Assembly: GCA_965222605.1 (NCBI GenBank)
Contig: OZ244960.1
Coordinates: 288,001 to 352,000, forward strand
Length of the DNA stretch: 64,000 nt
Origin: Candidatus Latescibacterota bacterium
GTDB lineage: Bacteria; Latescibacterota; UBA2968
Direction: 5' to 3'
Shown here: one piece after another, positions 24,621 through 46,707 of the stretch
How positions within the stretch are numbered: position 1 is the stretch's first letter
Layout of the letters: every line of letters begins with the position of its first letter
Notes under the pieces: generated by a model
The model's input: the letters and a program-made list of their open reading frames with translations, nothing else
What the model was told of the DNA's origin: nothing
The model's database searches: none
Program-made: the position numbers and the translations under genes

Positions 24621-24698
24621 GCGGTTTACAACTGCACACGCGCAGCACAACGTCAGTATAGCAGTTCAATATGGCCTTTGGTGTCGTTCCGTGAGATT

Positions 24699-25296: not shown

Positions 25297-25345
25297 GTCA
25301 ATTCCCCCATGCAAATAGACCGCTTCACGACAGGCTGTGAAAGTC

Positions 25346-25391
25346 AAAATAAACAAAAAAACGTACGTGTCAAGATTTAACACGTACGTTT
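25346..25391 (-). promoter_or_regulatory. TA promoter with a palindromic operator
   Basis: TTGACA-N16-TATTTT overlapped by the inverted repeat AAACGTACGTGT-N9-ACACGTACGTTT. Confidence 0.7.
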
Positions 25392-27083: not shown

Positions 27084-27092
27084 CACCCCAAC

Positions 27093-27119
27093 GGGCGGGC
27101 ACAGGGGCACCGCCCCTAC
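27093..27119 (-). repeat. GTAG-family REP palindrome
   Basis: Minus strand GTAGGGGCGGTGCCCCTGTGCCCGCCC in the batD-batE spacer. Confidence 0.65.
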
Positions 27120-27167
27120 ATTGTACAGCCGCGATAGCTGATCAATCAACACCCTCATAACTTTGCC

Positions 27168-29781: not shown

Positions 29782-29798
29782 AATCTCACGTCCATAAT

Positions 29799-32737: not shown

Positions 32738-32746
32738 TGCTGTCCA

Positions 32747-34114
32747 TTATGCTCCTTTTTGCATCGCGTCCAAAGACCAATTGAGTTGCAACCACGACAT
32801 CACCGAATACGGCAACACAACCACCTCGCGACGCGTTTTGGCCGTGCCGTACCAAAAATTGTTGGCCTGCCCGATAATCAGCTCTTGCACCAGTGTTTCG
32901 CCCCGCCACAGAGAAATCGTCAATACGGGGTCATTCAAACTATCTGCGGCAGATTTATCCACTTGATCGGGAAACTCGGCAACGACCAGATTGTGAACGC
33001 GATCAATCAAATCTTCAACGCTGGTATCTCCTTCTACAACGCGCCCATCCCCCATCACCACCTGCCACGAGCCATCGCCATCCTTCGCGCAATTCACCAC
33101 ACTGTCTCGATAGGCCAAACGCACGCGGTCAACACCCGTGCGATCAAACTCAAAAACGCGCTTGTAACGCAACCGGGTCAATGGAATATCCAGGGATTCT
33201 GAGAGAAGCTGATCTACGATAAACACCTGTGGCTGACTCATTACACGCCCATACCACAGTTTCTGCCGTTCATTGGGCACGCGCTTGCCCAGCAACAGCG
33301 TATTGGCCGCTTCATTGTCTTTTAGATACAACACGACTTTGTAATCTGGATCGTCGAACCCGTAAACTGTAGGATCATCCACCGCCTCTTTGTGAAAGGA
33401 TTCGACGCGCGCGTCTTTCAAATGCCCCAACAACGACAAAACCTCACGCGCGTCAGCCCGCTCTTTTATCGGCTGCACGAGATGCCACTTCAGCCCATCC
33501 CGCACGACTTCATAAGCACCTCCGGGCGCTTGAAAATACGCACGCGTAATCAGATCCAGGTCAAAGGCGAACGCACGCGTGTCGCGCAATGCCATCAGTG
33601 GACGATTAAACCGCGCGCGATATTGTTTTCTGGTCAACACGACCTTGTTCCCGCCCGACCAGGTTAGATAGCACGCCTGCTTCGAGGGAATATCATCGCC
33701 AAAAAACAACCATACAGGATCGCCCGATACCGGTTCAAATCGCACCTCAACCACGGGTGGATCCAGCCCAAAATTGGCGAGAGCAACCCCTGCGTAATCG
33801 CCTTCATCAACCACAACCCGACCGCGTTCAACAATCTGCGCGATCTCGATCATACCCTCAAATTCTATCCAATCGGCGGGTACTTTCAGCGGCGCGATCA
33901 GCATCCACTCATTGCCGTGCTTCTCAGCGACAAAGTGCCCGTATTCATTGGTCAACGTCAATCGCGCAACGCGATGTCGCTGAACTTCAATAAACGCATT
34001 CTTCGCCTCAATCTCGCGTTGTTCCTCTGCCATGCGAGGACGTTCATATAAAAAGACAAACCCCACCAACCCCAAAAGCAGAACCGCCAAAATCGCTGTC
34101 ACCTTAATACCCAC
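32747..34114 (-). CDS. DUF4340 domain protein
   Basis: N-terminal TM; repeated W.L..P....AD and FGLDPP/YGFDDP motifs; follows GldG. Confidence 0.8.
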   Translation of the reverse strand: MGIKVTAILAVLLLGLVGFVFLYERPRMAEEQREIEAKNAFIEVQRHRVARLTLTNEYGHFVAEKHGNEWMLIAPLKVPADWIEFEGMIEIAQIVERGRVVVDEGDYAGVALANFGLDPPVVEVRFEPVSGDPVWLFFGDDIPSKQACYLTWSGGNKVVLTRKQYRARFNRPLMALRDTRAFAFDLDLITRAYFQAPGGAYEVVRDGLKWHLVQPIKERADAREVLSLLGHLKDARVESFHKEAVDDPTVYGFDDPDYKVVLYLKDNEAANTLLLGKRVPNERQKLWYGRVMSQPQVFIVDQLLSESLDIPLTRLRYKRVFEFDRTGVDRVRLAYRDSVVNCAKDGDGSWQVVMGDGRVVEGDTSVEDLIDRVHNLVVAEFPDQVDKSAADSLNDPVLTISLWRGETLVQELIIGQANNFWYGTAKTRREVVVLPYSVMSWLQLNWSLDAMQKGA

Positions 34115-34148
34115 AATTTTTTCCTCAGTAGTCAGTAGTCAGTCCGCC

Positions 34149-35537
34149 TCAACGTCTGCGCCACCAGACCAGCACACCCGCGATAATCGAAACGCTCGGC
34201 AACACCAGCCAATATACCCACCGAATCCAAAATCCATCGCTCTGGTTTAATGTCAACGGGCGAAATCGCGTGCTCTTGGGCCGAATCGTAATTTTATCGC
34301 GCGCCCTGAGCAACCAATTCGCTGCATTCATAAACAAATCGCCATTGCCCGCCACCTCCACAAAGCGATTGCTCGCAAAATCCGAATCGCCAAAGACCAC
34401 AATCCGCGCCCGCGCGCCACGCTGATCATCACCAGCTTTTGCAGCAATAGTGGCCGGGCCTTCCACGACCATCGCCAGCCACAGTGGCCCCGGGCGGTCT
34501 GCCCCGGATGTGTATTCCACCGCCTCTTTGTCTTTAGCGAAAACAGCGTTCAAATTGGTCTCACTCCAACTGTTTGGCGAAGACAGCACCAGGGAAGAAA
34601 CATCAGCACCTGGCAATGACCTCACGCGTTCCATTGAGCGCGTCAGCGGATAGAACGTCTGCAATCCCGAGTGCTTATCCGTAATGGGATGTTTGCTATA
34701 ATGCGTCGTAACGGGAACCGAAAAATCTGCGCCCGGCAGCACCTGGCTTTTATCGACCACAAAATCATTTCGCAGGCCAATAGACCACTTTCGCAACAGC
34801 GGCTCGATCCCCGTATCGATGAGGGGATCCAACAAGAAGAACGCCGCCCCCCCCTGATTGAGATACGTCGCTACAATATCGATCTCTGCTGGCAAAAACG
34901 GGCGTTTAGGTCCTGCGACAATCAGCGCATTACAATCTTTGGGCACGCGCTGTGATTGCGCCAGTACCAGGGATGGGCGCACATCGTGGTTGCCTTCGAT
35001 GAGCAACTGCTTGATCCCGGAAAATCCCTGCTCTGATTGATCGTCGGGATGCGCCTCATCGTGTCCACCCACAAAATAGACCACCTGCCGCTCTTCGCTC
35101 ATCAAACGCGCAATGCCATTGGTCAATGCCTTTTCTGACGTTTCCTGAATGCGCTCTTCCCGATTGCCGTATTCGATCACCGAAACACCATATCGCGTCA
35201 CAGTATATCGCCTGGCCTCAATCGGCTCTCTGTCGGGATCGACAAACCGATAAGCAAAACGCCTCGAATGATAGGCGTATTGTTTGAGCAAATGCTCGTA
35301 ATCGCGCTGTTCTACTTCGCGGAAAAACGCCACAACATTGACATCTTCAGACATATTTTCCAAAATAGAAATTGTTTGAGGCGACAGCGTATAAAGACCG
35401 CGAGCCGTCAGGTCAAAGCGCGCGTGATACCGCGTGGTCAAAAAATTAACTGCCGCCAGAATACCCAGCGCAATCAACACTGCCGCAAGAGCATTAGACC
35501 CGTATTTCAATATTCGATGCGATAAAAATTTGGGCAT
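34149..35537 (-). CDS. GldG family / ABC-transporter auxiliary component
   Basis: FDLTARGLYTLSPQT, VYFVGGHDE, LIVAGP, VFGDSDF, NGDLFMNAANWL, C-terminal TM with WWRRR. Confidence 0.85.
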   Translation of the reverse strand: MPKFLSHRILKYGSNALAAVLIALGILAAVNFLTTRYHARFDLTARGLYTLSPQTISILENMSEDVNVVAFFREVEQRDYEHLLKQYAYHSRRFAYRFVDPDREPIEARRYTVTRYGVSVIEYGNREERIQETSEKALTNGIARLMSEERQVVYFVGGHDEAHPDDQSEQGFSGIKQLLIEGNHDVRPSLVLAQSQRVPKDCNALIVAGPKRPFLPAEIDIVATYLNQGGAAFFLLDPLIDTGIEPLLRKWSIGLRNDFVVDKSQVLPGADFSVPVTTHYSKHPITDKHSGLQTFYPLTRSMERVRSLPGADVSSLVLSSPNSWSETNLNAVFAKDKEAVEYTSGADRPGPLWLAMVVEGPATIAAKAGDDQRGARARIVVFGDSDFASNRFVEVAGNGDLFMNAANWLLRARDKITIRPKSTRFRPLTLNQSDGFWIRWVYWLVLPSVSIIAGVLVWWRRR

Positions 35538-35548
35538 AGATCTATCCC

Positions 35549-36670
35549 TTATTTCTCACCCGAGTAATGGCGCACCGCATCCCAATCGAGTTCTACACCG
35601 AGGCCCGGCCCTGTGGGAATGGTGAGCAATCCGTCTTCATCCAGTGAAAACTGCGTGGTGACAATATCTTCGATATAAGGCGATGGGGTAATATATTCGA
35701 CCCAGCGCGCAATGGGGTGTGCGGCGGCCAGGTGGAGATCTGCGAGGAAGCCAATAGCGGTGTTCCAGCCATGTGTGACGACCAGAACATTGTGGTCATA
35801 CGCATACCATATCAGGCGGCGCACTTCAGAAATGCCTCCCACCTTTGTAACATCGGGCTGGATAATATCATACGCACCGCGCTCAATCCACGGCATAAAA
35901 CTCTGGCGGCGAGTGAAAACTTCTCCGCCGGCAATGCGGACAGGGGAATATTCTCGCAACCTGATATGGCCCTCAATATCGTCGGGAGGGAGGGCTTCTT
36001 CAAACCAGGTGACATCGTAATCGCCGAGCATGCGGGCGGTTTCAATCGCCCATTTGTAATTGTGAGGCCAAAAGGCATCGCTGCCGCCTGCATCGACCAT
36101 GAGTTCCACATCGGGACCACAGGTATCCCGGGCGATTTTGATGAGGTGTTCATCCATGTAGCGGTCAACGCGCCCAAAAGCTCCCCAGCCGAGTTTAAGT
36201 GCTCTAAAACCGCGGTCGAGCGCGTCTTGCAAGCTGTGGGGAAATGTTTTGGGGTCTTCAAAGAGAATCGATCCGTATGGTTTAATTTTCTCGCGATAAT
36301 ACCCGCCGAGCAAACGACCAACAGGTTGCCCAACCGCTTTGCCAAAAACATCCCACAACGCGATATCAATACCGCTGATCGCATGCGTAACAGCCCCCCC
36401 GCGCCCCTGCCAGAAGCTCATCTGGTGAAGCTTTTCAGATACGCGCTCGGGCTCCAGTGCGTTTTCTCCAATGATATTGGATCGCAACAGTCCCATCGCA
36501 CCATCAACTAAAGCTTTGCTGGTAAAAACACTTCCCATACCGCTCACACCTTCATCCGTCTGAACTTCGACCAACGTATGCATATTTTCATCTGGCCCAG
36601 GCTCAACCGTCCAGCCCGTCATAGGCGTTTCCCCAAAGAGCGGAATCGTGCGAATTTCGGTGATTTTCAT
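35549..36670 (-). CDS. Mandelate racemase/muconate lactonizing enzyme family protein (probable acid-sugar dehydratase)
   Basis: AISGIDIALWD; metal ligands VDAG/WFEE/GGE; IIQPD; THGW. Confidence 0.88.
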   Translation of the reverse strand: MKITEIRTIPLFGETPMTGWTVEPGPDENMHTLVEVQTDEGVSGMGSVFTSKALVDGAMGLLRSNIIGENALEPERVSEKLHQMSFWQGRGGAVTHAISGIDIALWDVFGKAVGQPVGRLLGGYYREKIKPYGSILFEDPKTFPHSLQDALDRGFRALKLGWGAFGRVDRYMDEHLIKIARDTCGPDVELMVDAGGSDAFWPHNYKWAIETARMLGDYDVTWFEEALPPDDIEGHIRLREYSPVRIAGGEVFTRRQSFMPWIERGAYDIIQPDVTKVGGISEVRRLIWYAYDHNVLVVTHGWNTAIGFLADLHLAAAHPIARWVEYITPSPYIEDIVTTQFSLDEDGLLTIPTGPGLGVELDWDAVRHYSGEK

Positions 36671-37857
36671 TTGTGTTCCTTCAAGTATTCGGCTACTGCG
36701 CGTGCGACAATAAATTCTTCGTCGGTTTGGACAATCAGAACGGCGACCGCACTGTTAGATGCCGAGATCATCCCATCTGTGGGAGGATTGGCATTTGCGA
36801 CCTCGTCGAGATAAACGCCTAAGTATTCGAGACCAGTGCAGACGCGCTGGCGCACATTTGCCCCGCGTTCGCCAATTCCCCCGGCAAAAGCAATCGCATC
36901 CAGACCGCCCAGTGCGGCAGAACAAGCACCGATTTCTCTTTTGATCCCATAACAAAATGCCTCCAGAGCGAGACGCGCGCGTGTGTGCCCCTTTTGAGCA
37001 GCTTCTTCGAGATCGCGCACATCACCGCTAATACCCGAAATGCCGAGCAAACCGCTTTCTTCAGACAGGACGCGGCTAATTTCGCCTGTCGATAGATTTT
37101 CGCGGTCCATGATATAGGGAATAATGAACGGATCAATAGTTCCAATGCGCGTACTGTTGATGATGCCTGTTTGAGGCGAGAAGCCCATCGAGGTATCCAC
37201 GGATTGACCATTGCGAACCGCGCACAAAGAGGCACTTCCGCCGAGATGGCAGGATACCATGCGGAGATCTTCCCGGTCGAGTATTTGCGCCGTGCGTTGC
37301 GAAACGTAGCGGTGGGACGCGCCGTGGAAACCGTATTTGCGAACCCCGTATTTTTCATACCATTCGTAGGGCACACTATAGATATAGGCATAATCGGGTA
37401 TATTGGCGTGAAAAGCGGCTTCAAAGAGACCGATCAGGGGCAGGTTGGAATCGCATTGCGCGAAAATGCGAATCGTCTGGATATATGGCGGATTGTGGGC
37501 AGGCGCAAGGCTATTGTAGTCTGCCATGCGCTGCAAAATATCTTCCGTGAGAAGATATGTACCCGCTTTTCCGCGCATGTGAACAGTTTTGAATCCAACG
37601 GCATTGAGATCAGACAAGTCGGAGATTACGCCGGTGTGCGTATCTGTCAGACGCGCAATAACATCGCGTACAGCAGATGGATAATCCGGCAAGTGTTGTT
37701 CGGTCTCAACAGCGTATTCGCCAATCTGGTGGGCAACAGGTGAAGATGGATCGCCGATGCGCTCGAGACGACCTTCGGCGAGCACCGCTTCATCGGTCAT
37801 ATCAAATAAGCGATATTTGAACGAAGTAGAGCCTGCATTTGCAATGAGGATTTTCAT
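36667..37857 (-). CDS. ackA: Acetate/propionate kinase
   Basis: ILIANAGSTSFKY, LAPAHNPP, RKYGFHGASH, CHLGGSAS, DTSMGFSP, FAGGIGE, TDEE. Confidence 0.92.
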   Translation of the reverse strand: MKILIANAGSTSFKYRLFDMTDEAVLAEGRLERIGDPSSPVAHQIGEYAVETEQHLPDYPSAVRDVIARLTDTHTGVISDLSDLNAVGFKTVHMRGKAGTYLLTEDILQRMADYNSLAPAHNPPYIQTIRIFAQCDSNLPLIGLFEAAFHANIPDYAYIYSVPYEWYEKYGVRKYGFHGASHRYVSQRTAQILDREDLRMVSCHLGGSASLCAVRNGQSVDTSMGFSPQTGIINSTRIGTIDPFIIPYIMDRENLSTGEISRVLSEESGLLGISGISGDVRDLEEAAQKGHTRARLALEAFCYGIKREIGACSAALGGLDAIAFAGGIGERGANVRQRVCTGLEYLGVYLDEVANANPPTDGMISASNSAVAVLIVQTDEEFIVARAVAEYLKEHK

Positions 37858-39059
37858 GGTCTAACTATTTCAAGCCTCTGCATGGGTTTATCGGCAATGG
37901 GCAGATGAATAAGCGATGAAGCCAGGCTCAGGAGAATCGCGGCAATCCAAATAATATCGTAAGACCCCGTCGCATCATACATCCGCCCAGCCAGCCACAC
38001 GCCTAAAAAACTGCCAATCTGATGGCTGAAGAAGACAATGCCATACAGGGTGGAGAGATAGCGCGAACCAAAGATCTGCGCGACAGTGCCACTGGTTAAT
38101 GGAACGGTTGCAAGCCATAAGAATCCGATCAAGCTGCCAAACACAAGGGCCGACGTATTTGTAACGGGTACGAATAGGAATCCACTAATGACAAGGGCGC
38201 GGCCCAAATAGAGCCAACTCAAGAGATATTTTTTGCGATATCGGTCGCCGAGTTGCCCCGAAAGATAAGATCCAAAAATATTAAAAAGTCCAATTAGGGA
38301 TAACGCTGTTGCACCGACCATTTTTGAAAGGCCGTGATCCGTCAGAAATGCGGGCAGATGCGTGGCGATAAATGCGACGTGAAATCCACACACAAAAAAT
38401 CCCGCATTGAGCAACCAGTACCCTGAATGACCTCGCGCTTGAAGAAGTGCTCGAAGCAGGCTGCCATTATCGGGTTCGATGGTATTTGGAGACACCTTTC
38501 GCCCGCGCTGAGGAAACCCAATAGCGAGCAAGGCACTCGCGCCCGCGATCAGGGCGATGAAAGCGAATGAAGATTGCCAGCCCACGCCCGAGAGAAGCCA
38601 TTGCACACCTGATACGAGTGCAAAAGTACCAAAAGAACCCGCGGCAGTAATAAGCCCAAAGAACGAGGCGCGTTTTTCCGGTGCAACAACCTGAGCGACC
38701 GCACCGAGGACCACCACATAGGAGATGCTGCTGAGTGCGATGCCCATGAGTACACCGAGCACGGTGTACAGACCAAGAGGCGTGCTGACAGAAGATAATA
38801 GAAAAAAACAGACGGCATAGATCAACGCGCCGCCAGCAACAACCCATCGCGGTCCAAAATGGTCTGCGACAATGCCCACTACAGGCAAACCAAAAATGAG
38901 GTTTTGCCATGCGATGGCCAGGCTAAAGACTTCTCGTCCAATGCCGAGGTCTCGGCTGATCGGTGACAAAAAAAGGCCAAAGGATTGGCGAATGCCCATG
39001 CTGACAAACACAATCAGGGCACTGCAAAATATGACAATAGTCGCTTTGCGATTGGGCAT
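37854..39059 (-). CDS. MFS transporter
   Basis: 12 hydrophobic segments; ADHFGPR; GFFVCGFHVAFIATHLP; HQIGSFLG. Confidence 0.9.
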   Translation of the reverse strand: MPNRKATIVIFCSALIVFVSMGIRQSFGLFLSPISRDLGIGREVFSLAIAWQNLIFGLPVVGIVADHFGPRWVVAGGALIYAVCFFLLSSVSTPLGLYTVLGVLMGIALSSISYVVVLGAVAQVVAPEKRASFFGLITAAGSFGTFALVSGVQWLLSGVGWQSSFAFIALIAGASALLAIGFPQRGRKVSPNTIEPDNGSLLRALLQARGHSGYWLLNAGFFVCGFHVAFIATHLPAFLTDHGLSKMVGATALSLIGLFNIFGSYLSGQLGDRYRKKYLLSWLYLGRALVISGFLFVPVTNTSALVFGSLIGFLWLATVPLTSGTVAQIFGSRYLSTLYGIVFFSHQIGSFLGVWLAGRMYDATGSYDIIWIAAILLSLASSLIHLPIADKPMQRLEIVRP

Positions 39060-39089
39060 TTATGAAATTCCGACATTTCTTTTTTTACC

Positions 39090-40382
39090 TCACCCCTGAA
39101 CGACCGTCCCGTATTCATTGGGAATCGGCCCGTCGTACTCCCAGGTTTTCCAGGGCGTATCTCGATGCGATTCCCGAACGATGGTTCGAATTTCTGAAAC
39201 AATATCTGGATATTCGGCTGCGAGGTCATTTTGTTCGCCGATATCCGTTGCTAAATCGTAGAGTTCAACAACGCCTTCGGGATTGGCATGGCCTTCGGGT
39301 AAATATGCTTTCCAATCACCCAGGCGAACAGCACTGACACCGCGCCGCTCCCAATAGAGAAATTCGTGAGCTTGTTGGGTATCGCGGTCCAGGAGTGCAG
39401 GCAACATAGAAATGCCATCAACCGGTTCCGGGATAGACACACCGGTCAATTCGCAGAACGTGGGCAACATATCCTGGAAACCCGAATAATGTGCGCTCAC
39501 AGTACCGGGTTGAATCGTTCCCGGCCACCGAGCGACAAAGGGCACGCGGATGCCACCTTCATAGAGACTCCCCTTTTTTCCGCGAAGTGGTCCAGCCGCG
39601 TTGAAGTGTTCAAGCGTATGGCCACTGCCGTGGGGGCCATTATCGCTCGTGAAGATAACAAGAGTATTTTCGGCAATACCAAGTTCGTCGAGCATATCCA
39701 AAAGCGTGCCAATATCGCGGTCCATGCGCGCAATCATAGCCGCCTGCGTCTTCTGATCTTCCGTCCAGGGCTTGTCTTTGTAAATATCGAGAGATGGAAT
39801 TTCGAATTTGGTGTGTGGAATGGTGTAGGCCAAATAGAGAAAAAAGGGATTGGATTGCTGTTCGCACACAAATTGCAAAGCTTCAGCCGTGAGTAGATCG
39901 TGTGAATACGATTTGCCGTAGAGCATGATTTTCTGATCGTTCCGCCAGAGGTGCTGAGGATAATAAGTGTGGGCTTCGCGCTGGCAATTGTACCCAAAAA
40001 AGTGATCGAAACCCTGATTGTTGGGATCGCCTTCCGATCCCGGATACCCCAATCCCCATTTGCCAATGCAGGCAGTGGCATAACCGCTCTTTTTGAGCAA
40101 TTTGGCGACCGTCTGCGTGTCGCCAGGGATGGGCACATTGCCCTCAATGGACAAAGCGCGATTGTCCCGCACATAACAATGCCCCGTGTGCAGACCCGTC
40201 ATAAGCACACACCTCGAGGGCGCACATACCGAAGACCCGGCATAGTGATCCGTAAACCGAATGCCCTCTGCTGCAATGCGGTCAATATTGGGCGTATAAA
40301 TAAACTCCTGCCCAAAACAACCCAGATCGCCGTAGCCGAGATCATCCGAGAGGATGTAGATAATATTGGGCATTGTTTTCAT
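39090..40382 (-). CDS. Arylsulfatase (formylglycine-dependent, S1 family), no signal peptide
   Basis: PNIIYILSDDLGYGD, CAPSR (CxPxR), LMTGLH, GKWGLG, TSDNGP, YEGGIRVP; TAATG overlap with the aldolase stop. Confidence 0.92.
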   Translation of the reverse strand: MKTMPNIIYILSDDLGYGDLGCFGQEFIYTPNIDRIAAEGIRFTDHYAGSSVCAPSRCVLMTGLHTGHCYVRDNRALSIEGNVPIPGDTQTVAKLLKKSGYATACIGKWGLGYPGSEGDPNNQGFDHFFGYNCQREAHTYYPQHLWRNDQKIMLYGKSYSHDLLTAEALQFVCEQQSNPFFLYLAYTIPHTKFEIPSLDIYKDKPWTEDQKTQAAMIARMDRDIGTLLDMLDELGIAENTLVIFTSDNGPHGSGHTLEHFNAAGPLRGKKGSLYEGGIRVPFVARWPGTIQPGTVSAHYSGFQDMLPTFCELTGVSIPEPVDGISMLPALLDRDTQQAHEFLYWERRGVSAVRLGDWKAYLPEGHANPEGVVELYDLATDIGEQNDLAAEYPDIVSEIRTIVRESHRDTPWKTWEYDGPIPNEYGTVVQG

Positions 40383-41185
40383 TATTTTAACTCTTCCATA
40401 ACCCTGCGAGTAATTTCCGCAACGAGATCGTCTTGGGAAGTTTGGGCAGGGGCTGTACCGCCAGCGCTCAACGTGCGAATTGTGGGAATGTGGGTAGTGG
40501 ATTGAGTTGTGGGTGCATCGGGTATATCGCATGCCGGATCGGGGCCGCGAAGGCCCATGCGGTTGCGAATAGCGACCAGTTTAGCCACCTGTTCCGCATT
40601 GAGTTCGTTATACCCGCCGAGTTGGTTTGCCACAAAAAGTATTTTCGCAAAATGCTCCATCGTTTCCATCTTGTAATAGGCATTCATCACATCGGTGCCG
40701 ATCGTAGTCGCACCGTGATTTTCGAGCAAATAGGCGTCGTAATCCACGACGTATTGCCTGATCGGTTCAGAAATCTCTGGTCCCCCCGGCGTACCGTATT
40801 CCACAATGGGTATGGCGCCGAGTGTGATAATCACCTCGGGCAAAACACATGCAGTGAGCGAAACGCCTGCAACCGCAAAACCAGTAGCAGTTGGCGGATG
40901 CGCGTGTACAACAGCGCGCACATCGGGACGCTCGCGATAAAGAAAAATATGCATGCCAATTTCCGACGAAGGCCGCTTTTGCCCACTCACAAGCGTGCCA
41001 TCCATGTCCGTAATACAGAGATCTTCGACCTTGAGAAATCCCTTGGACATCCCCGTTGGCGTCGTGAGAATGCGGTCTTCTTCAATTCGGCAAGAAATAT
41101 TGCCATCGTTGGAAGCGACAAAGCCGCGATCGTACACGCGACGCCCGGCTTCAATAATATCGAGTTTGGCCTGATGGAGATTCAT
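40382..41185 (-). CDS. Class II aldolase/adducin family protein (fuculose/rhamnulose-phosphate aldolase-like) with a C-terminal encapsulation peptide
   Basis: DGNIS, TPTG, PSSE..MH, VVHAHPP, LENHG; tail QDDLVAEITRRVMEELK. Confidence 0.9.
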   Translation of the reverse strand: MNLHQAKLDIIEAGRRVYDRGFVASNDGNISCRIEEDRILTTPTGMSKGFLKVEDLCITDMDGTLVSGQKRPSSEIGMHIFLYRERPDVRAVVHAHPPTATGFAVAGVSLTACVLPEVIITLGAIPIVEYGTPGGPEISEPIRQYVVDYDAYLLENHGATTIGTDVMNAYYKMETMEHFAKILFVANQLGGYNELNAEQVAKLVAIRNRMGLRGPDPACDIPDAPTTQSTTHIPTIRTLSAGGTAPAQTSQDDLVAEITRRVMEELK

Positions 41186-41193
41186 TTTACGTC

Positions 41194-41466
41194 TCACCTT
41201 TTGATATCAATATCGTCAACGACGCCGACGATAACGGAACGTACAGCAGGCAATTCCACATTGAGAACGAGACCTGCTGCGACACCCTGACGAATTACGA
41301 GGACAATCTCGCCGCGACCAACGCCTGTGGCATCAACTGCGAGCGCCGATGCGCCATCATCTTTGCCATCGGGAGTAATGGGCTGCACGACCATGAGTTT
41401 AGCGCTGTTATAATCGCTGTGTTTAATAGTCGATGTGACGCTGCCGAGTACGCGAGCCAGGAACAT
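41194..41466 (-). CDS. BMC pentamer shell protein (EutN/CcmL, BMC-P)
   Basis: MFLARVLGSVTSTIKH...AVDATGVGRGEIVL...IVGVVD. Confidence 0.92.
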   Translation of the reverse strand: MFLARVLGSVTSTIKHSDYNSAKLMVVQPITPDGKDDGASALAVDATGVGRGEIVLVIRQGVAAGLVLNVELPAVRSVIVGVVDDIDIKR

Positions 41467-41542
41467 ATAGAATTTGGGATTCGGGATTTAGCTGCTTTCT
41501 CCCCTTCTCGTCTGGGGAGCCGGAGGGTAGGTCGCCTCACAA

Positions 41543-41806
41543 TCAGACATTGACCTGATCGACAATGCCAACAACTGCCGCGTCAACCGGGCCGTATTTA
41601 TCGGGCAGGGCATTGGGAGCCTCTCGTGAACCGACCCAGTAGATGGTCTCGCCATCGCTGGCATTGACCACATCAACCGCGACAAACGCATCCCCTGCTT
41701 TTTTGTGCTCGTGATCAATAGGTTCAACGACAAGCAGTCTAAAACCTTTGAGCGAGGCATCTTTACGCGTCGCCCAAATTTTGCCAATGACACGGCCGAG
41801 GAACAT
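41543..41806 (-). CDS. BMC pentamer shell protein (EutN/CcmL, BMC-P)
   Basis: MFLGRVIGKIWATRKD...VAVDVV...PVDAAVVGIVD. Confidence 0.92.
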   Translation of the reverse strand: MFLGRVIGKIWATRKDASLKGFRLLVVEPIDHEHKKAGDAFVAVDVVNASDGETIYWVGSREAPNALPDKYGPVDAAVVGIVDQVNV

Positions 41807-41829
41807 TTTTACCTCGCGAGATGCGGGAC

Positions 41830-43266
41830 TTATACAATTCTAAAATAGTCGATAAGGGCACAGCGGCGCTGGCGGGTAAATGTGCGAGCAGACGTGCAGC
41901 CTTCGCCGGTGGGTGTGGCAATAGAGAAAGACGTATAGCCTTCACCACCTGCGCCCAATCCCGCAGATGACGCGCCGTTTTTCACAAAAATCGCACACTT
42001 ACATTGGCGAGCCATAACCGTCATATTCTCGACATTCTTCGAGTGCATGACCGCCGTGTGGCGATACCCCTGTTCGGCTCGAATAGCCCAGTCAATTGCC
42101 CTGTGTACATCGGGTGTGCGAACAATGGGAACAAACGGCATCATCTGCTCGTGTTGAACAAAATCGTGCTCATTTTCAACCTCGCCAATTAAAAGCTCTG
42201 TATCGGGCGAAATATTGAGGCCAATTTGAGCAGCAAGCACATGCGCGCTGCGACCGACGAGATCTCGATTGAGCATCCAATCGCCTTTTTCGTCGCGGGG
42301 AAACGCGATTTTAGTCAGCGCATCAATTTGTGAACGATCGAGTTCTACACAATTATTTCCCTTCAAGTGGCGCATCAGTTCGTCGGCCACGGATTGAACG
42401 ACAAAAACTTCCTTTTCACCAATGCACAAAATATTATTGTCAAAACCGCCGCCTTCAATAATGCTGAGGGCGGCCTTTTCGATATCGGCGGTCTCATCCA
42501 CCACCACAGGTGGATTGCCAGGCCCGGCTGCGATCACGCGCTTGGGTGCTTGCATGGCCGCTTTGACAACGCCACCGCCACCAGTGACGAGAACGAGATC
42601 GACGCTGGGATGCACAAAAAGGCTCTGCGCCGTTTCTATGGAGGGTTCACGCACAGCAACGAGCAAATTTGGTGGGCCGCTCGCACCGGCAATGGCGCGA
42701 TTGAGCATTTGAAGGCCCAGAGCCGAAACATTTTTCGCGCTCGGATGGGGCGCAAAAACCGCGCTATTGCCCGCAGCGATAAAGCTAATTGCATTGTTGA
42801 CCATCGTGGGCACCGGATGCGTGGATGGCGTAACAGCGGCAATCACGCCAAAGGGTGCCATTTCAACAACCGTCAAACCATTGTCGCCCGTCCACGCCGT
42901 GGGCTGCAAATCTTCAACGCCAGGCGTGTGCTGTGCAACAACCTCGAATTTGCGAATTTTGTGCGGCACCTTGCCCATGCCGGTTTCTTCAACGGTTTTT
43001 TGCGCGATACCCTTTGAATGCGCCATAGATTCGCGGCGGATCGCAGAAATAAGCTCGCGGCGGTGCTCCAGGCTCATCGCTTCAAGGGCACGCTGGGCTT
43101 CTGAAGCCGCGGCTATAGCTTCTTCGAGGTCGTTAAAAAGGCCATCGTCGCCTTTGTTTTCATAGCGAGCGGGCGGTGCAATGACCGCAGGAGCTTCGCG
43201 CTCAGCCACAAGGCGACGCACAACCTGCTCAACCACTGATCGGATTTGGATTTCGTCTAAGTTCAT
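41830..43266 (-). CDS. Acylating aldehyde dehydrogenase (EutE/PduP-like) with an N-terminal encapsulation peptide
   Basis: LDEIQIRSVVEQVVRRL; PFGVI; TGGGGVV; AGPGNPPVVVDETAD; FDNNILCIGEK (catalytic Cys); TPTGEG.TSARTF. Confidence 0.93.
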   Translation of the reverse strand: MNLDEIQIRSVVEQVVRRLVAEREAPAVIAPPARYENKGDDGLFNDLEEAIAAASEAQRALEAMSLEHRRELISAIRRESMAHSKGIAQKTVEETGMGKVPHKIRKFEVVAQHTPGVEDLQPTAWTGDNGLTVVEMAPFGVIAAVTPSTHPVPTMVNNAISFIAAGNSAVFAPHPSAKNVSALGLQMLNRAIAGASGPPNLLVAVREPSIETAQSLFVHPSVDLVLVTGGGGVVKAAMQAPKRVIAAGPGNPPVVVDETADIEKAALSIIEGGGFDNNILCIGEKEVFVVQSVADELMRHLKGNNCVELDRSQIDALTKIAFPRDEKGDWMLNRDLVGRSAHVLAAQIGLNISPDTELLIGEVENEHDFVQHEQMMPFVPIVRTPDVHRAIDWAIRAEQGYRHTAVMHSKNVENMTVMARQCKCAIFVKNGASSAGLGAGGEGYTSFSIATPTGEGCTSARTFTRQRRCALIDYFRIV

Positions 43267-43282
43267 AAGCAATAGAAGCTTT

Positions 43283-43315
43283 CAGCGATCAGCTGTCTGC
43301 TGACCGCTGATCGCT
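43283..43315. repeat. Short heptamer-based inverted repeat
   Basis: CAGCGATCAGC-TGTCT-GCTGACCGCTGATCGCT in the BMC-P/AldDH spacer. Confidence 0.5.
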
Positions 43316-43604
43316 ATTTCTGATAAACTGCTTCGCCTTCGATTTCTGCCGTGTCAATAATAGCGACAATCACAGCATCGACAGGGCGATTTTCAGTCGC
43401 ACTCGTCATACGGGCGGAACTCCCACTACAACAGAGCACGACTTCGCCATCGCCTGCACCAACAGCATCTACGGCGACCAAAAAACTTTCTTTTAGTTCG
43501 AATGCGGACAAATCGAGCGTTTGGACGATCTGGAGCTTAAAACCCGCCAGGCCGCTGTCTTTTTGGGTGGCAACCACCGTTCCCACCACCTTGCCGAGGG
43601 TCAT
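43314..43604 (-). CDS. BMC pentamer shell protein (EutN/CcmL, BMC-P)
   Basis: GKVVGTVVATQKD...VAVDAVGAGDGEVVL..SGSSAR...PVDAVIVAIID. Confidence 0.93.
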   Translation of the reverse strand: MTLGKVVGTVVATQKDSGLAGFKLQIVQTLDLSAFELKESFLVAVDAVGAGDGEVVLCCSGSSARMTSATENRPVDAVIVAIIDTAEIEGEAVYQK

Positions 43605-43607
43605 AGT

Positions 43608-43892
43608 TTAGTCGTCTGAAGAGCCGATAGGCAGAATATCTTCGAGGCTACCATGCGGTCGCGGAATGACGTGTACGGAAATGAGTTCGCCAATTTTGCC
43701 AGCAGCAGCAGCGCCAGCTTCAGTTGCAGCTTTAACGGCTGCCACATCGCCGCGCACCATGGCAGTGACATATCCCGCGCCAATGCGTTCCCAATTGACA
43801 AATTGGACATTGGCGGCTTTGACCATCGCATCTGCCGCCTCAATCATAGCTACGAGACCTTTGGTTTCAATCATGCCGAGGGCTTCACCCAT
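43608..43892 (-). CDS. BMC hexamer shell protein (BMC-H, EutM/PduA-like)
   Basis: [26 protein letters not shown]...[11 protein letters not shown]...HVIPRPH. Confidence 0.96.
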
Positions 43893-43916
43893 GTTGCAAT
43901 TCCTCCTGAAAAATGA

Positions 43917-44189
43917 TCATTGTGTACTAAAAATAACCGCATCTACTTGTGGATCGAGATTTGGGATAACGTGAGCGGCAACGAGATCCCCAACGCGCTC
44001 GGCAGCTTCTGTTCCCGCTTCGATAGCTGCACGAACCGCGCCCACATCGCCGCGCACCAGTGTGGTGGTATATCCCGCACCGATTTTTTCGTACTTTTCA
44101 ATCGTGACGAGAGCCGTCTTAACCATCGCATCGGCAGCTTCTGTTGTGCCAATAACGCCGAGTGTTTCAATCATACCGAGTGCAGTCAT
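43917..44189 (-). CDS. BMC hexamer shell protein (BMC-H)
   Basis: ALGMIETLG...EAADAMVK...KIGAGY...RGDVGAVRAA...HVIP. Confidence 0.94.
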   Translation of the reverse strand: MTALGMIETLGVIGTTEAADAMVKTALVTIEKYEKIGAGYTTTLVRGDVGAVRAAIEAGTEAAERVGDLVAAHVIPNLDPQVDAVIFSTQ

Positions 44190-44228
44190 AAAGTTGGAGA
44201 CTAGCAGGAACAAGCCCCTGGCCCCTTC

Positions 44229-44936
44229 TCATTTTATCATAAATGCCATATCTCCACAGACGAGATCGGCCGCGTTGGCATCGTCGGTATCCAAATGGAG
44301 TTCGGGCAAATAACTTTCGTCAATTTTGAGGTGCACATTGTCATATATAACGCCTTTTTCGCCTCCCACGCGCACCCTGACAGATTCCCGTCCTTGAAAG
44401 CCATAGTCCATTACATCAGACGGGCGCAGGTGAATGTGGCGCGCCGCGCGAATGGCTGCGTTGACTGTGACCGAACCCTTGGGACCGATGAAAGTAACAG
44501 GCGGCGCATCTCTCAGATCTCCCGAATCCCTCACAGGCGGGTCAACGCCGATATAGATGGCATCGGTTCGGGCGAGTTCGACCTGATTATAGTCGCGGCT
44601 GGGACCGAGAATCCGCACGCGCTCAATCGCGCGCAACCGGGGGCCAACAACAGAGATGACTTCCTCGGCGGCAAAAGCGCCCGGTTGGTAGAGCTCGCGA
44701 TAAGGCGTTAAGGTGTGACCCGCGCCAAAAAGAATCTCCAGGGTTTCATCATCAACATGTGCATGCCGAGCGGATACACCTACAGAAATGGGAATTTCTT
44801 CGCCATCTCCACCGCGGATCTGGCGCACGACTTCTTGCGCAATGCGGTCAATCGCATCGCCTTCCCCATTATTTTGCCCGAAAGCGCAAAGACCGCAATC
44901 ATCGCACACAGAGGCATTTTTTCGCATTGGAAGCAT
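44229..44936 (-). CDS. pduL: PduL-type phosphate acyltransferase with an N-terminal encapsulation peptide
   Basis: VGVSARHAH, QPGAFAAEE, VRILGP, RDSGDL, ARHIH, LHLDTDDANA; DAIDRIAQEVVRQIR; start may be 44936 or 44927. Confidence 0.92.
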   Translation of the reverse strand: MLPMRKNASVCDDCGLCAFGQNNGEGDAIDRIAQEVVRQIRGGDGEEIPISVGVSARHAHVDDETLEILFGAGHTLTPYRELYQPGAFAAEEVISVVGPRLRAIERVRILGPSRDYNQVELARTDAIYIGVDPPVRDSGDLRDAPPVTFIGPKGSVTVNAAIRAARHIHLRPSDVMDYGFQGRESVRVRVGGEKGVIYDNVHLKIDESYLPELHLDTDDANAADLVCGDMAFMIK

Positions 44937-44975
44937 CGTCAAAATGTAGTATCGAGTGCTGTTTACAAAGGGCGA

Positions 44976-45004
44976 AAAATAGCTCATGACTGCTGTAAAG
45001 TCAA
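44976..45004 (-). promoter_or_regulatory. sigma70-type promoter of the BMC operon
   Basis: TTGACT-N17-TATTTT on the minus strand. Confidence 0.6.
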
Positions 45005-45093
45005 GGGCTAAACACGCCGTAAAAAGCGCGATGCTTGACAAGTACCGAGCTTTGAACCAAATTCAGAGAGACTGTTTATTTTTTCTAACCATC

Positions 45094-46707
45094 ATGAGAA
45101 ATATACACTTGCTACTTAGATTACTCATGTGCATCCTGCTGTTTTTTTGTATAGCCAGTCCGGTAATCAGCGAAGATGCCTCGCCCGATATCCCACTGTA
45201 TCATCCCGTGTATCCCCTGTTGGATCGCCTGAATACGCGAGGTTGGGTCGCCGTGCCCGATACGCGCCCCTTGACCCGGACACAAGTTGCGCAGATGCTT
45301 TCCGCCGTGTCCAGTCAATCTATGTCGGCAACCGAGCGTGGCCTCATCAACCGATATATTGCAGAATTGGAAAATCGCGTGGCCTTTGCACGCGAACCCC
45401 GATGGATCTGGCACGACTCCACGGCGTCCGTCACCCTCGAACCGCTGGCTCGGCAACAGGTGATTGCACGCAGGGGCGATGGATTTTTGAACGAGACCAC
45501 ATCGCAAACCTATATTGGCGGTTCTGTGCGCGGGCGATTCCACACATTGGGATTTTACGCACGCCACTTTGAGGCCCGCGAGTGGAGCAACCAACCGCGC
45601 CTTCGCCGAAAAGATGTGCTGGCCCGCCCCATTGAAGATGTGCAACTCAAGGGCAAAAAGGCAGATTTTCGGGAAAGCGCGTTTCAACTGGCCTGGGCAA
45701 ATTCATGGATACGTATAGATGCCGGCAAAGGAAGCCTCAGTTGGGGGCCTGGACGCACGGGAAATTTATTGCTCTCCAACAATGCGCCATCTTATGGCTT
45801 GTTCCGGTTGCGTACATCACACGGGCGATTGCGCTATACCCATATCGCTTCATCACTGCGCGCACGCCCGGGATTAATCGACACAACGCGACGGTGGATT
45901 GACAATGGGCATGTGCGTATTTTTTTAAGGCAAAAGCGACTTGCCGCGCACCGCCTGGACATTGAGTTCTCAAAAGTGAGAATTGGATTGCACGAGGCAG
46001 TGGTATATGGCGACCGGGGATTTGAGCTACTCTACGTTTTGCCAGTCGCCGTATTTGCGGGAACGCAAAATCACCTGGGAAATCGCGACAATCTCGTAAT
46101 TGGAGCCGATATATCAGCTCACATCCTGACGGGACTGACACTTTATGGCGCGTGGTTTTTCGACGATATGGTCAAATTCGATCCCAATGCGTTTTCCAAT
46201 CAATTTGCCTTTCAAGTGGGCGCGTTCTGGGTCGATCCCCTGGGCTTGCGAGATACCGATGTGCGCGCCGAATATGTGCGCGTGGAGCCTTATGTGTACG
46301 CGCACAATTTCCACATCAATACGTATGAACACTACGACACGCTTTTGGGCTATCCAACCGGACCAAATGCAGACCGCTATTTTGCACAAGTGACGCACCG
46401 CTTTTCGCCAAGTCTGAATGCGTCTTTAACTTTCGAAAGAGAGCGACAAGGTGAAAATCCAGTAAATCCAGATGGAACAATTGTCAATGTGGGCGGCAAT
46501 GCACAACTGGGACGTCGGTTAGAGGACCCAACCACGCGAAATTTTATGTCGGGCAATATAGAGACACTGAAAAAAATACGCGGCCGCATAGTATTTGCAC
46601 CTGTGAGAAATTGGACTTTACAGGTACAGTATCATCGCACTATAACCCAACAAAGCCGGGCAACGGGACATGAGTGGACAGCGACGATAGATGTGAACTT
46701 TTATTAA
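45094..46707 (+). CDS. Capsule assembly Wzi-family outer-membrane protein
   Basis: Signal peptide; WGPGRTGNLLLSNNAP; AAHRL; EY.RVEPYVY; LGYPTGPNAD; aromatic C-terminus. Confidence 0.75.
   Translation: MRNIHLLLRLLMCILLFFCIASPVISEDASPDIPLYHPVYPLLDRLNTRGWVAVPDTRPLTRTQVAQMLSAVSSQSMSATERGLINRYIAELENRVAFAREPRWIWHDSTASVTLEPLARQQVIARRGDGFLNETTSQTYIGGSVRGRFHTLGFYARHFEAREWSNQPRLRRKDVLARPIEDVQLKGKKADFRESAFQLAWANSWIRIDAGKGSLSWGPGRTGNLLLSNNAPSYGLFRLRTSHGRLRYTHIASSLRARPGLIDTTRRWIDNGHVRIFLRQKRLAAHRLDIEFSKVRIGLHEAVVYGDRGFELLYVLPVAVFAGTQNHLGNRDNLVIGADISAHILTGLTLYGAWFFDDMVKFDPNAFSNQFAFQVGAFWVDPLGLRDTDVRAEYVRVEPYVYAHNFHINTYEHYDTLLGYPTGPNADRYFAQVTHRFSPSLNASLTFERERQGENPVNPDGTIVNVGGNAQLGRRLEDPTTRNFMSGNIETLKKIRGRIVFAPVRNWTLQVQYHRTITQQSRATGHEWTATIDVNFY

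Follow-up and report, generated by a model that had tools for sequence, protein, structure and literature searches.

A PVM-like microcompartment operon of a sponge-associated Latescibacterota bacterium, with sulfatase, MFS and enolase-superfamily genes added in one genus

The locus described here is the 5' main part of an aldolase-type (PVM-like) metabolosome operon, and the set of sulfatase, MFS and enolase-superfamily genes that accompanies it is a genus-level accretion onto an already known type of BMC. The window, that is, the whole stretch of 64,000 nucleotides that was analysed, comes from a sponge-associated MAG of Candidatus Latescibacterota. The gene string proposed in the earlier note, from pduL to the enolase-superfamily gene, is present and lies entirely on the minus strand, as judged from Pfam matches and coordinates (Table 1), and its aldolase-type metabolosome gene set supports the PVM-like typing made in that note. 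The core, including ackA, is conserved throughout the order.

Table 1. Genes of the metabolosome locus, with window positions and the matches that identify them.
Feature	Position	Strand	Evidence and remarks
PduL-type phosphotransacylase	44229-44936	minus	PF06130 (PduL/PTAC) E 7.9e-61; NF011652 210 bits
BMC-H shell protein 1	43917-44213	minus	PF00936 E 4.2e-25; likely start ATG at 44189
BMC-H shell protein 2	43608-43892	minus	PF00936 E 3.5e-30
BMC-P pentamer protein 1	43314-43604	minus	PF03319 (EutN_CcmL) E 4.6e-29
AldDH, CoA-acylating	41830-43272	minus	PF00171 match; NF011927 648 bits, cut-off 403
BMC-P pentamer protein 2	41543-41806	minus	PF03319 (EutN_CcmL) E 2.7e-27
BMC-P pentamer protein 3	41194-41466	minus	PF03319 (EutN_CcmL) E 7.4e-20
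Class II aldolase (signature enzyme)	40382-41197	minus	PF00596 E 1.1e-47; likely start ATG at 41185
Cys-type S1 sulfatase, S1_20-like	39090-40382	minus	PF00884 E 2.9e-61
MFS transporter, oxalate-formate / monocarboxylate-carrier-like	37854-39059	minus	PF07690 (MFS_1)
Acetate/propionate-family kinase ackA	36667-37857	minus	PF00871 E 4.6e-113; TIGR00016 381 bits
Enolase-superfamily (MR/MLE) enzyme	35549-36670	minus	PF13378 + PF02746 (MR_MLE_C, MR_MLE_N)

The TAA of the aldolase and the ATG of the sulfatase share one base (TAATG), and 4-nt overlaps (ATGA) occur at both the MFS/ackA and the ackA/enolase junctions. These overlaps, claimed before, are confirmed in the sequence and the coordinates, and the placement of the sulfatase, MFS and enolase genes in one tightly packed string with the BMC core is likewise supported. 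The tight spacing extends past 35549, with gaps of at most 34 nt through GldG-like, DUF4340 and Bat-type genes to 26325. Neither a DeoR nor a lactate/malate dehydrogenase gene was found among the genes Pfam-scanned at the locus. This absence, which had been presented as a departure from known PVM loci, is real but not special, since both genes are missing at every Latescibacterota locus with scanned neighbours, including three outside the genus.

As had been proposed, PduL, AldDH and the aldolase carry amphipathic terminal segments, seen outside the Pfam domains, of the kind expected of encapsulation peptides. In PduL the helix is N-terminal (AIDRIAQEVVRQIR, the domain beginning at residue 52), as it is in AldDH (QIRSVVEQVVRRLV, domain from residue 47); the aldolase segment is C-terminal (DLVAEITRRVMEEL) and is preceded by a linker rich in Pro, Thr and Ala. 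All eight aldolase sequences compared from the order keep EITRRVMxEL at the C-terminus and begin with MNLHQAK, and the PduL orthologs align across the full 235 aa. No encapsulation peptide was seen in the ackA product. Among the shell genes, that of BMC-H 2 is the most conserved, with 82-91% identity even when compared with loci of the same layout from other genera (L069-L094, L096, L098, L101, L102).

Comparison across the order distinguishes what is ancestral from what was added. The ancestral layout reads aldolase-ackA-RegProp-BMC-H-unk115-(HtrA)-sigma, and at 26 of the 34 loci outside the genus the gene immediately behind the aldolase is ackA. The earlier note had counted ackA among the added genes; given this position, and its status as a standard PVM ancillary gene in the accessible part of Axen 2014, it belongs to the core and lies outside the novelty. 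A sulfatase, MFS or enolase gene occurs at none of these 34 loci, six of which have less than 3 kb of sequence beyond the aldolase; in the genus, a sulfatase lies directly or nearby downstream of the aldolase in all 21 genomes. Above the genus level, relatives thus keep the core without the three accessory genes, the pattern that the earlier note had itself named as speaking against its reading. The distal half of the ancestral locus, comprising the beta-propeller protein, the third BMC-H, the 115-aa protein and a sigma factor, is found in this genome at 2.897-2.905 Mb of G000, 2.6 Mb from the operon.

Within the genus the aldolase-sulfatase junction is variable. The TAATG overlap is present in 9 of the 21 genomes and is confined to a crown clade of the locus tree; in the remaining 12 the two genes are separated by 60 to about 215 nt or by inserted DNA of 0.85-6.1 kb. 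Within this DNA lie IS transposases, methylase-HNH, AbiJ or PIN genes, small ORFs that by eye resemble DUF433 and HicB (toxin-antitoxin) and, in three genomes, GH113-like glycoside hydrolase genes. At least nine insertion events have occurred, yet no lineage seen has the sulfatase away from BMC-operon genes, and in the one split locus (G016) it remains with the BMC core. The sulfatase, MFS and enolase proteins share 84-90% identity with those of the deep subclade, compared with 79-96% for the core genes; accessory genes that are as conserved as the core indicate purifying selection. A metagenome contig from a relative (L109) carries sulfatase-ackA-enolase, with no MFS between sulfatase and ackA, followed by a 331-aa ORF that is GFO/IDH/MocA-like by size and position only, as judged by eye, an arrangement in which the non-phosphorylative branch suggested earlier may have a place. 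The aldolase/sulfatase junction is covered by a 206-nt contig of an RNA library that may contain carried-over DNA. The retained linkage, L109, the conservation, the GH113-like genes and the RNA contig fit selection for co-regulation, which would bind these genes to the compartment more closely in function than loose accretion does.

The sulfatase carries the CxPxR motif reported for it, as CAPSR in the translation. Its best solved-structure relatives are 7ANA (E 1.2e-111) and 7AN1 (E 3.4e-97), with other subfamilies at 3.8e-73 or weaker, and in its motif CQREAHTYYP 9 of 10 residues agree with the published S1_20 consensus. To judge from these matches, the enzyme is S1_20-like, with a Gln/His dyad predicted to read O6 and O4 of Gal, and this points to 3-sulfo-galactose rather than to sulfated 6-deoxyhexoses. 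A signal peptide would not fit at the conserved start MKTMPNIIY, and extending the frame upstream adds no hydrophobic stretch. The enzyme is therefore signal-less, as stated earlier, but this is the norm of the genome and not a distinctive trait: 138 of 149 sulfatase N-termini are signal-less (109 without room, 29 with room but with neither a hydrophobic nor a Tat segment) and the remaining 11 resemble signal peptides, by a procedure that was correct for 6/6 and 2/2 controls. The genome has about 150 sulfatase genes and 19 FGE-domain matches. The closest homologs outside the phylum (60-67% identity) belong to Planctomycetota and have Sec or Tat signal peptides.

The MFS protein resembles monocarboxylate and oxalate/formate carriers and no known type of sugar importer, the role first assigned to it. 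Its best NCBIfam model is SfMCT, at 100 bits and under the cut-off of 320, and oxalate/formate antiporters are also among the best models. The sequence search returned three solved relatives, all monocarboxylate carriers: the L-lactate transporter SfMCT (6G9X, E 1.1e-21) and, near threshold, two sequences of human monocarboxylate transporter 2 (MCT2, E ~2e-4). Homologs with 63-70% identity in other phyla are annotated simply as "MFS transporter". In the genus the gene is broken in two genomes, by a frameshift in G011 and an internal deletion in G017, and in the split G016 locus it is apart from the sulfatase and stays with ackA. None of the 20 genomes outside the genus has it at the BMC locus; the sole ortholog among them, in G021, lies elsewhere in the genome and adjoins PrpD/MmgE and PEP-mutase/ICL-family (organic-acid) genes.

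In the enolase-superfamily protein, alignment to 5OLC and 3SJN shows that it is the second Lys of the KxK motif that is missing, not the first as had been read: the protein has K-L-G where 5OLC has K-M-K, and the closest structure, 3SJN (E 3e-57), carries the same K-x-G. No NCBIfam equivalog cut-off was reached, including those of the rhamnonate and fuconate dehydratase models. The gene was not found in 6 of 20 genus relatives at E<=1e-80, five of these six being at least 95% complete, and the six fall at no fewer than four places on the locus tree; it has been lost repeatedly within the genus, at least four times. Orthologs in other genera (71-83% identity) lie far from the BMC and beside a GFO/IDH/MocA oxidoreductase, a partner that in this genome is 4.6 Mb from the enolase gene. 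There are 41 enolase-superfamily matches (HSPs) in the genome.

We lean, with moderate confidence, towards an ordinary PVM-like operon whose 3' part was remodelled in one genus by loose, regulon-level accretion, with no new metabolosome chemistry. By analogy with the PVM system already characterised, the aldolase, which its C-terminal peptide would keep in the shell, would cleave L-rhamnulose-1-phosphate or L-fuculose-1-phosphate to DHAP and lactaldehyde; the encapsulated AldDH would then form lactyl-CoA, PduL would form lactyl-phosphate, and the non-encapsulated AckA would yield lactate and ATP. Genome-wide searches found RhaA (597 bits), 5 FGGY kinases and 8 GH29 fucosidase matches. In the genus, a sulfatase gene was inserted behind the aldolase and an MFS gene ahead of ackA, and the enolase-superfamily gene was relocated behind ackA. 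Since their products lack encapsulation peptides, they would act in the cytoplasm or at the membrane, and probable read-through from the BMC promoter would cause them to be co-expressed with the compartment during use of sulfated glycans. The sulfatase would be an exo 3-sulfo-galactoside-type member of a mostly cytoplasmic arsenal.

It appears unlikely that the locus instead encodes one integrated pathway, in which a sulfated deoxyhexose enters through the MFS protein and is freed of its sulfate by the cytoplasmic sulfatase, and lactaldehyde, formed from the free sugar by isomerase, kinase and aldolase or oxidatively via the enolase-type dehydratase, is detoxified in the compartment. Such a pathway would be in keeping with the retention of the sulfatase throughout the genus and its translational overlap in nine genomes, with the fucosidase matches and RhaA, and with the ties between microcompartments and the use of sulfated fucose- or rhamnose-containing glycans given for other phyla in the accessible literature. 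The enolase gene and the GFO/IDH/MocA-like ORF of L109, the latter recognised by eye, would supply the dehydratase and the dehydrogenase that an oxidative sugar route calls for. However, the S1_20-like sulfatase retains the Gln responsible for reading O6 of Gal, the transporter resembles lactate and oxalate/formate carriers, is absent on L109 and is broken in two genomes, the enolase falls below the rhamnonate and fuconate dehydratase cut-offs, has been lost repeatedly and has its GFO partner far away, and none of the accessory genes occurs at the loci outside the genus.

The resemblance of the MFS protein to SfMCT and, weakly, to human MCT2, the oxalate/formate antiporters among its top models, its overlap and, in G016, continued linkage with ackA and the organic-acid neighbours of its G021 ortholog would also accord with a role in product handling, the transporter moving lactate made by PduL and AckA, or another small organic anion, across the membrane, with the sulfatase and enolase as unrelated passengers. 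We consider this distinctly unlikely: the SfMCT score is far from its cut-off, the alignment has Ser and Trp in place of an Arg and a Tyr of SfMCT that we take to be carboxylate-binding, the operon runs without this MFS gene outside the genus, and two members of the genus have pseudogenised theirs. Neutral adjacency, in which rearrangement of a genome rich in repeats and IS elements put the accessory genes here with no functional or regulatory tie to the compartment, is very improbable. With so many sulfatase genes and enolase-superfamily HSPs such neighbours are common, mobile and toxin-antitoxin elements cluster at the junction, and equally tight spacing joins the enolase to unrelated GldG-like and Bat genes; but each of the 21 genus genomes, and L109 too, has the sulfatase linked to BMC-operon genes, and the 1-nt overlap in nine genomes leaves no space in which the sulfatase could have a separate promoter.

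The predicted substrate, fucose or rhamnose via lactaldehyde, is that of the PVM metabolosome of Planctomycetes and Verrucomicrobia as set out in the available portions of Axen 2014 and in papers citing Erbilgin 2014. Compared with the system described there, the Latescibacterota locus has no DeoR and no lactate/malate dehydrogenase-type gene, its ancestral form has a 487-aa beta-propeller protein, a third BMC-H of 144 aa and a 115-aa protein, a 494-aa protein that matches no Pfam family is present in many genera, and the sulfatase, MFS and enolase genes are additions of this genus. Verrucomicrobiota and Planctomycetota with BMC loci that lie together with genes for the use of fucoidan and sulfated glycans, or are co-expressed with them (PMC8857213, PMC11685898), similarly combine sulfatases and a fucose/rhamnose microcompartment in the same diet, and in Planctomycetota strain 892 the fucoidan loci and the BMC share a genomic region. 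In the accessible text of these papers the sulfatases are placed in separate polysaccharide utilisation loci and are not described inside the BMC operon, whereas in the present operon the gene for a sulfatase without signal peptide shares a base with the aldolase stop codon. The S1_20 enzymes BT1636 and BT1622 of Bacteroides thetaiotaomicron, as far as they are described in the available part of bioRxiv 10.1101/2020.11.20.392076, have the Cys-type active site and the Gln/His dyad in common with this sulfatase, which differs in lacking a signal peptide, in its marine symbiont setting, in having Ser at the N334/E334 position and in the deletion, in the alignment, of the C357/R353 loop. Residue offsets suggest that 7ANA is BT1622. 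Within the phylum, a fucose/rhamnose microcompartment fed by sulfated algal glycans was already proposed from Latescibacteria single-cell genomes (Youssef 2015, PMC4454575). From what is accessible of that paper and of Axen 2014, where the type is called "SPU-like", those genomes combine separate sulfatases and an anaerobic maturase with a locus that contains PduS and RpiB-like genes; the present genome, in contrast, has the PVM-type set, FGE-domain matches and a sulfatase gene inside the operon.

Pfam and NCBIfam scans identified the gene string listed in the table below. Together with the coordinates they confirmed what an earlier note had read from the DNA, namely the order of the genes, the TAATG that serves as both the aldolase stop and the sulfatase start, and the 4-nt overlaps of the ATGA type at the MFS/ackA and ackA/enolase junctions.

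Genes of the microcompartment string in the window, in the direction of reading
Gene	Position	Strand	Basis
PduL	44229-44936	-	Pfam/NCBIfam scans
BMC-H	43917-44213	-	PF00936
BMC-H	43608-43892	-	PF00936
BMC-P	43314-43604	-	PF03319
Acylating AldDH	41830-43272	-	NF011927, 648 bits
BMC-P	41543-41806	-	PF03319
BMC-P	41194-41466	-	PF03319
Class II aldolase	40382-41197	-	PF00596, E 1.1e-47
Sulfatase	39090-40382	-	PF00884; CAPSR in translation
MFS_1 transporter	37854-39059	-	Pfam/NCBIfam scans
Acetate/propionate kinase (ackA)	36667-37857	-	Pfam/NCBIfam scans
MR/MLE enolase-superfamily protein	35549-36670	-	Pfam/NCBIfam scans

The junctions had been taken as translational coupling of the last four genes to the compartment. 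This argument is weakened because equally tight spacing runs on well past them. Twenty genes lie on one strand from 44936 to 26325, with gaps of -20 to 76 nt, and beyond the enolase-superfamily gene gaps of at most 34 nt lead into a GldG-like gene (11 nt after the enolase gene), a DUF4340 gene and Bat-type VWA/TPR genes, none of which anybody would assign to the compartment. A scan of 29000-45300 for promoter and terminator consensus sequences gave 17 against 15.3 expected and 19 against 19.2; these counts are no higher than in shuffled sequence and the scan is therefore silent on operon boundaries. Within 26325-35537, the GldG-like ABC-auxiliary and DUF4340 genes stand without adjacent ABC transporter genes, and a Bat-type cluster (VWA, TPR, BatD) follows the two on the same strand with minimal gaps. 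A TPR protein at 29005-29781 carries a long (Q-D-Q) repeat run in its C-terminal half, the opposite-strand frame of which consists of Leu/Ile repeats. At 22894-25383, a 421-aa ORF that looks transposase-like by eye adjoins a small HTH-like ORF and a PIN/antitoxin-like pair.

The core of the locus is that of a PVM-like metabolosome. The class II aldolase (PF00596), the PVM signature enzyme, ends behind a linker in EITRRVMxEL, an encapsulation-peptide-like segment that is kept in 8/8 sequences of the order, and PduL and AldDH have amphipathic N-terminal segments ahead of their Pfam domains. A hydrophobic-moment scan was discarded as a test of such peptides, since ordinary internal helices, including those of the sulfatase, reached equal scores; the peptides were called instead from their location beyond the Pfam domains and their conservation. 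BMC-P genes outnumber BMC-H genes at the locus (three PF03319 against two PF00936), a third BMC-H of the window's genome, G000, lying at a satellite site at 2.90 Mb, and the metabolosome pair of acylating AldDH and PduL is accompanied by an ancillary acetate kinase. In its account of PVM loci, Axen 2014 counts acetate kinase and DeoR as ancillary and takes the alcohol dehydrogenase to be a lactate/malate dehydrogenase. No DeoR-family regulator was found among the 20 window genes scanned or among the neighbors in three non-genus loci (L034, L037, L038), and no lactate/malate dehydrogenase-type domain, the expected NAD+-recycling enzyme of a PVM locus, at the locus or in the three non-genus loci scanned, so that the description of a PVM-like core without these two genes is borne out. 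Five Fe-ADH matches lie elsewhere in G000.

The host is an uncultured MAG, and a role of the compartment in sugar use, which in PVM systems is growth on L-fucose and L-rhamnose, is supported by the content of its genome: RhaA (597 bits), five FGGY kinases, eight GH29 fucosidase matches, the Fe-ADH matches and 19 matches to the FGE domain PF03781. The FucI match is weak (35 bits) and a fucose isomerase route is therefore not established. PF17389, the GH78 six-hairpin rhamnosidase family, had no match, a search of one family that says nothing on rhamnosidases generally. Away from the BMC, G000:C1:2080263-2093130 may hold an oxidative fucose cluster: the gene of an enolase-superfamily paralog (2084095-2085141) stands immediately 5' of that of a GH29 fucosidase (2085241-2086284), and sulfatase genes are close by.

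Loci were fetched from 20 same-genus genomes and 12 from other genera, and 52 more from one-genome-per-species contigs. Outside the genus, the 5' half reads Wzi-like (divergent)/PduL-(494-aa protein without a Pfam match)-BMC-H-BMC-P-AldDH-BMC-P-BMC-P-aldolase, and the aldolase is followed by AckA, a 487-aa Reg_prop beta-propeller protein, a 144-aa BMC-H, a 115-aa protein, HtrA, a sigma factor and a TMEM260-like protein. AckA, which the earlier note had named among the genes coupled to the compartment, stands directly 3' of the aldolase in 26/34 non-genus loci and is therefore core, in agreement with the ancillary list cited above. In G000 the distal half, made up of the Reg_prop protein, the third BMC-H, the 115-aa protein, the sigma factor and the TMEM260-like protein, is found at 2.897-2.905 Mb, 2.6 Mb off. 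The 494-aa protein lies between PduL and BMC-H in many genera, the 144-aa BMC-H has a C-terminal extension, and the 115-aa protein has no Pfam match; distal-half sites were seen at G000:C1:2897987-2904821 (locus L047) and in fetched loci L033-L044 and L070-L102. The Reg_prop, 144-aa BMC-H, 115-aa and 494-aa proteins are conserved BMC partners across the order, whose usual PVM-like metabolosome is what the locus represents.

The sulfatase, MFS and enolase genes are a different matter. None was found in the 34 non-genus loci (E<=1e-8, >=40% coverage), six of which have less than 3 kb after the aldolase. Within the genus (21 genomes with G000 counted in, each with a G number) the sulfatase lies 3' of the aldolase in 21/21, at 87-95% identity, the G012 locus being ended by a contig edge. 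The synteny of relatives is thus divided, in that the sulfatase is retained throughout the genus but the core stands without the accessory genes outside it.

Even within the genus, the junction varies. TAATG and the sulfatase N-terminus could be read directly in 9/21 genomes (G000, G002, G004, G005, G006, G009, G011, G013, G015); elsewhere, the spacing is 60 nt (G019), about 210 nt (G012, G016) or 0.85-6.1 kb (the remainder). The inserts hold methylase-HNH, DDE transposase, AbiJ and PIN genes (G018), an IS4/5 transposase (G020), a small nucleotidyltransferase-like ORF (G007, G014, G017) or GH113-like glycoside hydrolase genes (G001, G003, G008), and small ORFs adjoining the aldolase resemble, by eye, DUF433 and HicB antitoxins. 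The GH113-like TIM-barrel genes lie at 8414-9979 of L013, 7869-9407 of L015 and 7129-8670 of L020; one of the three has a dockerin domain, and the G001 and G008 copies are only 58% identical. A quick ML tree built on the DNA from AldDH to aldolase of the genus loci confines the overlap to the crown of one of two subclades; the overlap is missing in the deep subclade (G001, G010, G016, G018) and in G019.

The MFS gene has a frameshift in G011 and an internal deletion in G017, and in G016 the MFS, ackA and enolase genes lie together at another site, the sulfatase having stayed with the core. The enolase gene was not found at E<=1e-80 in G005, G007, G008, G011, G012 and G020, genomes that are 95-98% complete (five) or 91% complete (G012), and these absences are scattered over at least four places on the tree. 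Together, the sulfatase, MFS and enolase genes form a young and unstable addition to the compartment locus, restricted to the genus and in part decaying.

The added sulfatase has the PF00884 fold and the formylglycine motif C-x-P-x-R, here CAPSR, and the FGE-domain matches provide the genome with candidate maturases. Among solved structures it matches 7ANA/7ANB (E 1.2e-111) and 7AN1 (E 3.4e-97) best, other subfamilies matching at 3.8e-73 or weaker; the top two solved matches come from the BT1622/BT1636 study and lead every other subfamily by roughly 80 bits or more. The residues CQREAHTYYP of this S1_20-like enzyme agree with 9/10 positions of the S1_20 motif, with Glu at position 4. The nearest homologs outside the phylum are arylsulfatases of Planctomycetota/Phycisphaerae (445-475 aa, 60-67% identity), and six of the seven non-phylum homologs inspected have a clear Sec or Tat leader, the 436-aa P0146 having none. 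The best paralog in G000 is only 47-49% identical. These observations suggest that the gene was acquired from outside, or represents a separate old lineage, and that the leader was subsequently lost.

The earlier note was correct that the leader is missing, as the protein begins directly at the first beta-strand (MKTMPNIIY), but this is the habit of the genome. In a start-codon-aware tally, which classified 6/6 secreted and 2/2 leaderless controls correctly, 109/149 G000 sulfatases have, whichever start codon is used, under 18 residues ahead of the first strand, 29/149 have room but no hydrophobic or Tat segment, and 11/149 are signal-peptide-like. Thus 138 of about 149 (93%) lack either the space for a signal peptide or any trace of one, and the signal-less state does not mark the locus sulfatase as special. 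Judged by these N-termini, the sulfatase arsenal of G000 is overwhelmingly cytoplasmic in appearance, and this genome-wide habit is the more unusual observation.

The MFS protein scored 100 bits against the SfMCT L-lactate model, for which the cut-off is 320, with oxalate/formate models next, and its solved relatives are SfMCT and, weakly, MCT2. Where 6G9X (SfMCT) has its carboxylate-binding Arg and Tyr, the aligned residues here are Ser and Trp. Homologs of 63-70% identity in other phyla bear generic names only. One of 20 non-genus genomes, G021, has an ortholog (66% identity), which adjoins PhyH, GFO, PrpD/MmgE and PEP-mutase-family genes and not the BMC.

No curated equivalog model (galactonate, rhamnonate, mannonate, talarate and others) reached its cut-off with the enolase-superfamily protein; the best was galactonate dehydratase (163 bits against 311), and L-rhamnonate dehydratase gave 120 against 393. 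At the end of the second barrel strand K-L-G aligns with the K-M-K of 5OLC, so that a Lys of the KxK motif is indeed missing, but it is the second and not, as had been stated, the first; the nearest structure, 3SJN, has K-F-G and likewise no second Lys. Everything else in the original observation was judged sound. A link to carrageenan or agar, raised by 5OLC (presumably an anhydro-galactonate cycloisomerase) and 5XD7 among the matches, was dropped for low identity. G000 has 41 enolase-superfamily matches (HSPs).

Orthologs of the enolase gene (71-83% identity) occur in five other genera, distant from the BMC. In L103, L104 and L106, the three loci with scanned neighbors, the ortholog adjoins an ORF of about 330 aa; that of L104, when scanned, proved to be a GFO/IDH/MocA oxidoreductase, the G000 ortholog of which lies at 4.97 Mb. 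The metagenome contig L109 (6008 nt), from a relative, carries a sulfatase 84% identical to that of the locus, followed by ackA, enolase and a 331-aa ORF that is like the GFO partner in size and position only; it has no MFS, and the end of a histidine-kinase gene takes the place of the aldolase upstream.

G000 is a single 6.34-Mb contig. The window stretch was found in DNA runs from the coded organisms C, D and E, and smaller shares of it in RNA runs, which bear the label sponge metagenome or the codes of organisms A and B. One study's RNA libraries, in three runs, yielded contigs 95-100% alike on parts of pduL, shell, AldDH, aldolase, sulfatase, MFS, ackA and enolase, including one of 206 nt (40219-40424) that crosses the aldolase/sulfatase junction. 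These are a weak hint of expression, being assembled contigs without a DNA control, from which level, strand and transcript ends cannot be read; equally, parts of the locus without contig cover in runs X1-X3 are not to be taken as silent. In run X4, from a relative 90-95% alike, one contig joins 39069 to 39553, skipping 483 nt that take in the sulfatase 3' end; on this single low-likeness contig, the sulfatase of that strain may be truncated.

Microcompartments have been tied to the use of sulfated fucose/rhamnose glycans in passages on Verrucomicrobiota (PMC8857213) and Planctomycetota (PMC11685898), BMC together with sulfatases have been predicted for Latescibacteria (PMC4454575), and sulfatases are described as enriched in PAUC34f and Poribacteria (PMC7081726). 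Passages of the BMC catalog (Sutter 2021, PMC8217296) mention neither sulfatase nor Latescibacteria. None of the literature searched describes a BMC operon that contains a sulfatase; the supplementary locus tables of Sutter 2021 may already include the locus type. One could propose that in a sponge-associated genus the BMC operon captured a sulfatase whose kin elsewhere are secreted, and that the enzyme, now leaderless and translationally coupled to the aldolase, would desulfate an imported sugar in the cytoplasm under co-regulation with the compartment, an enolase/GFO oxidative branch (compare L109) also yielding lactaldehyde. We regard this scheme as unlikely. If it were true, a sulfatase step would here be part of a BMC operon for the first time. 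If the coupling were functional, BMC operons could take up enzymes that "pre-process" sulfated glycans of marine or host origin, and a substrate class would be indicated for the uncharacterized Latescibacterota symbionts of sponges. At present the analysis is of value mainly as a correction: the compartment is the usual one of its order, the added genes are recent and unstable, and the leaderless sulfatase follows the habit of its genome. Compared with PVM, the locus is missing DeoR and the lactate/malate dehydrogenase-type gene; the aldolase, shell, AldDH, PduL and acetate kinase are all present.
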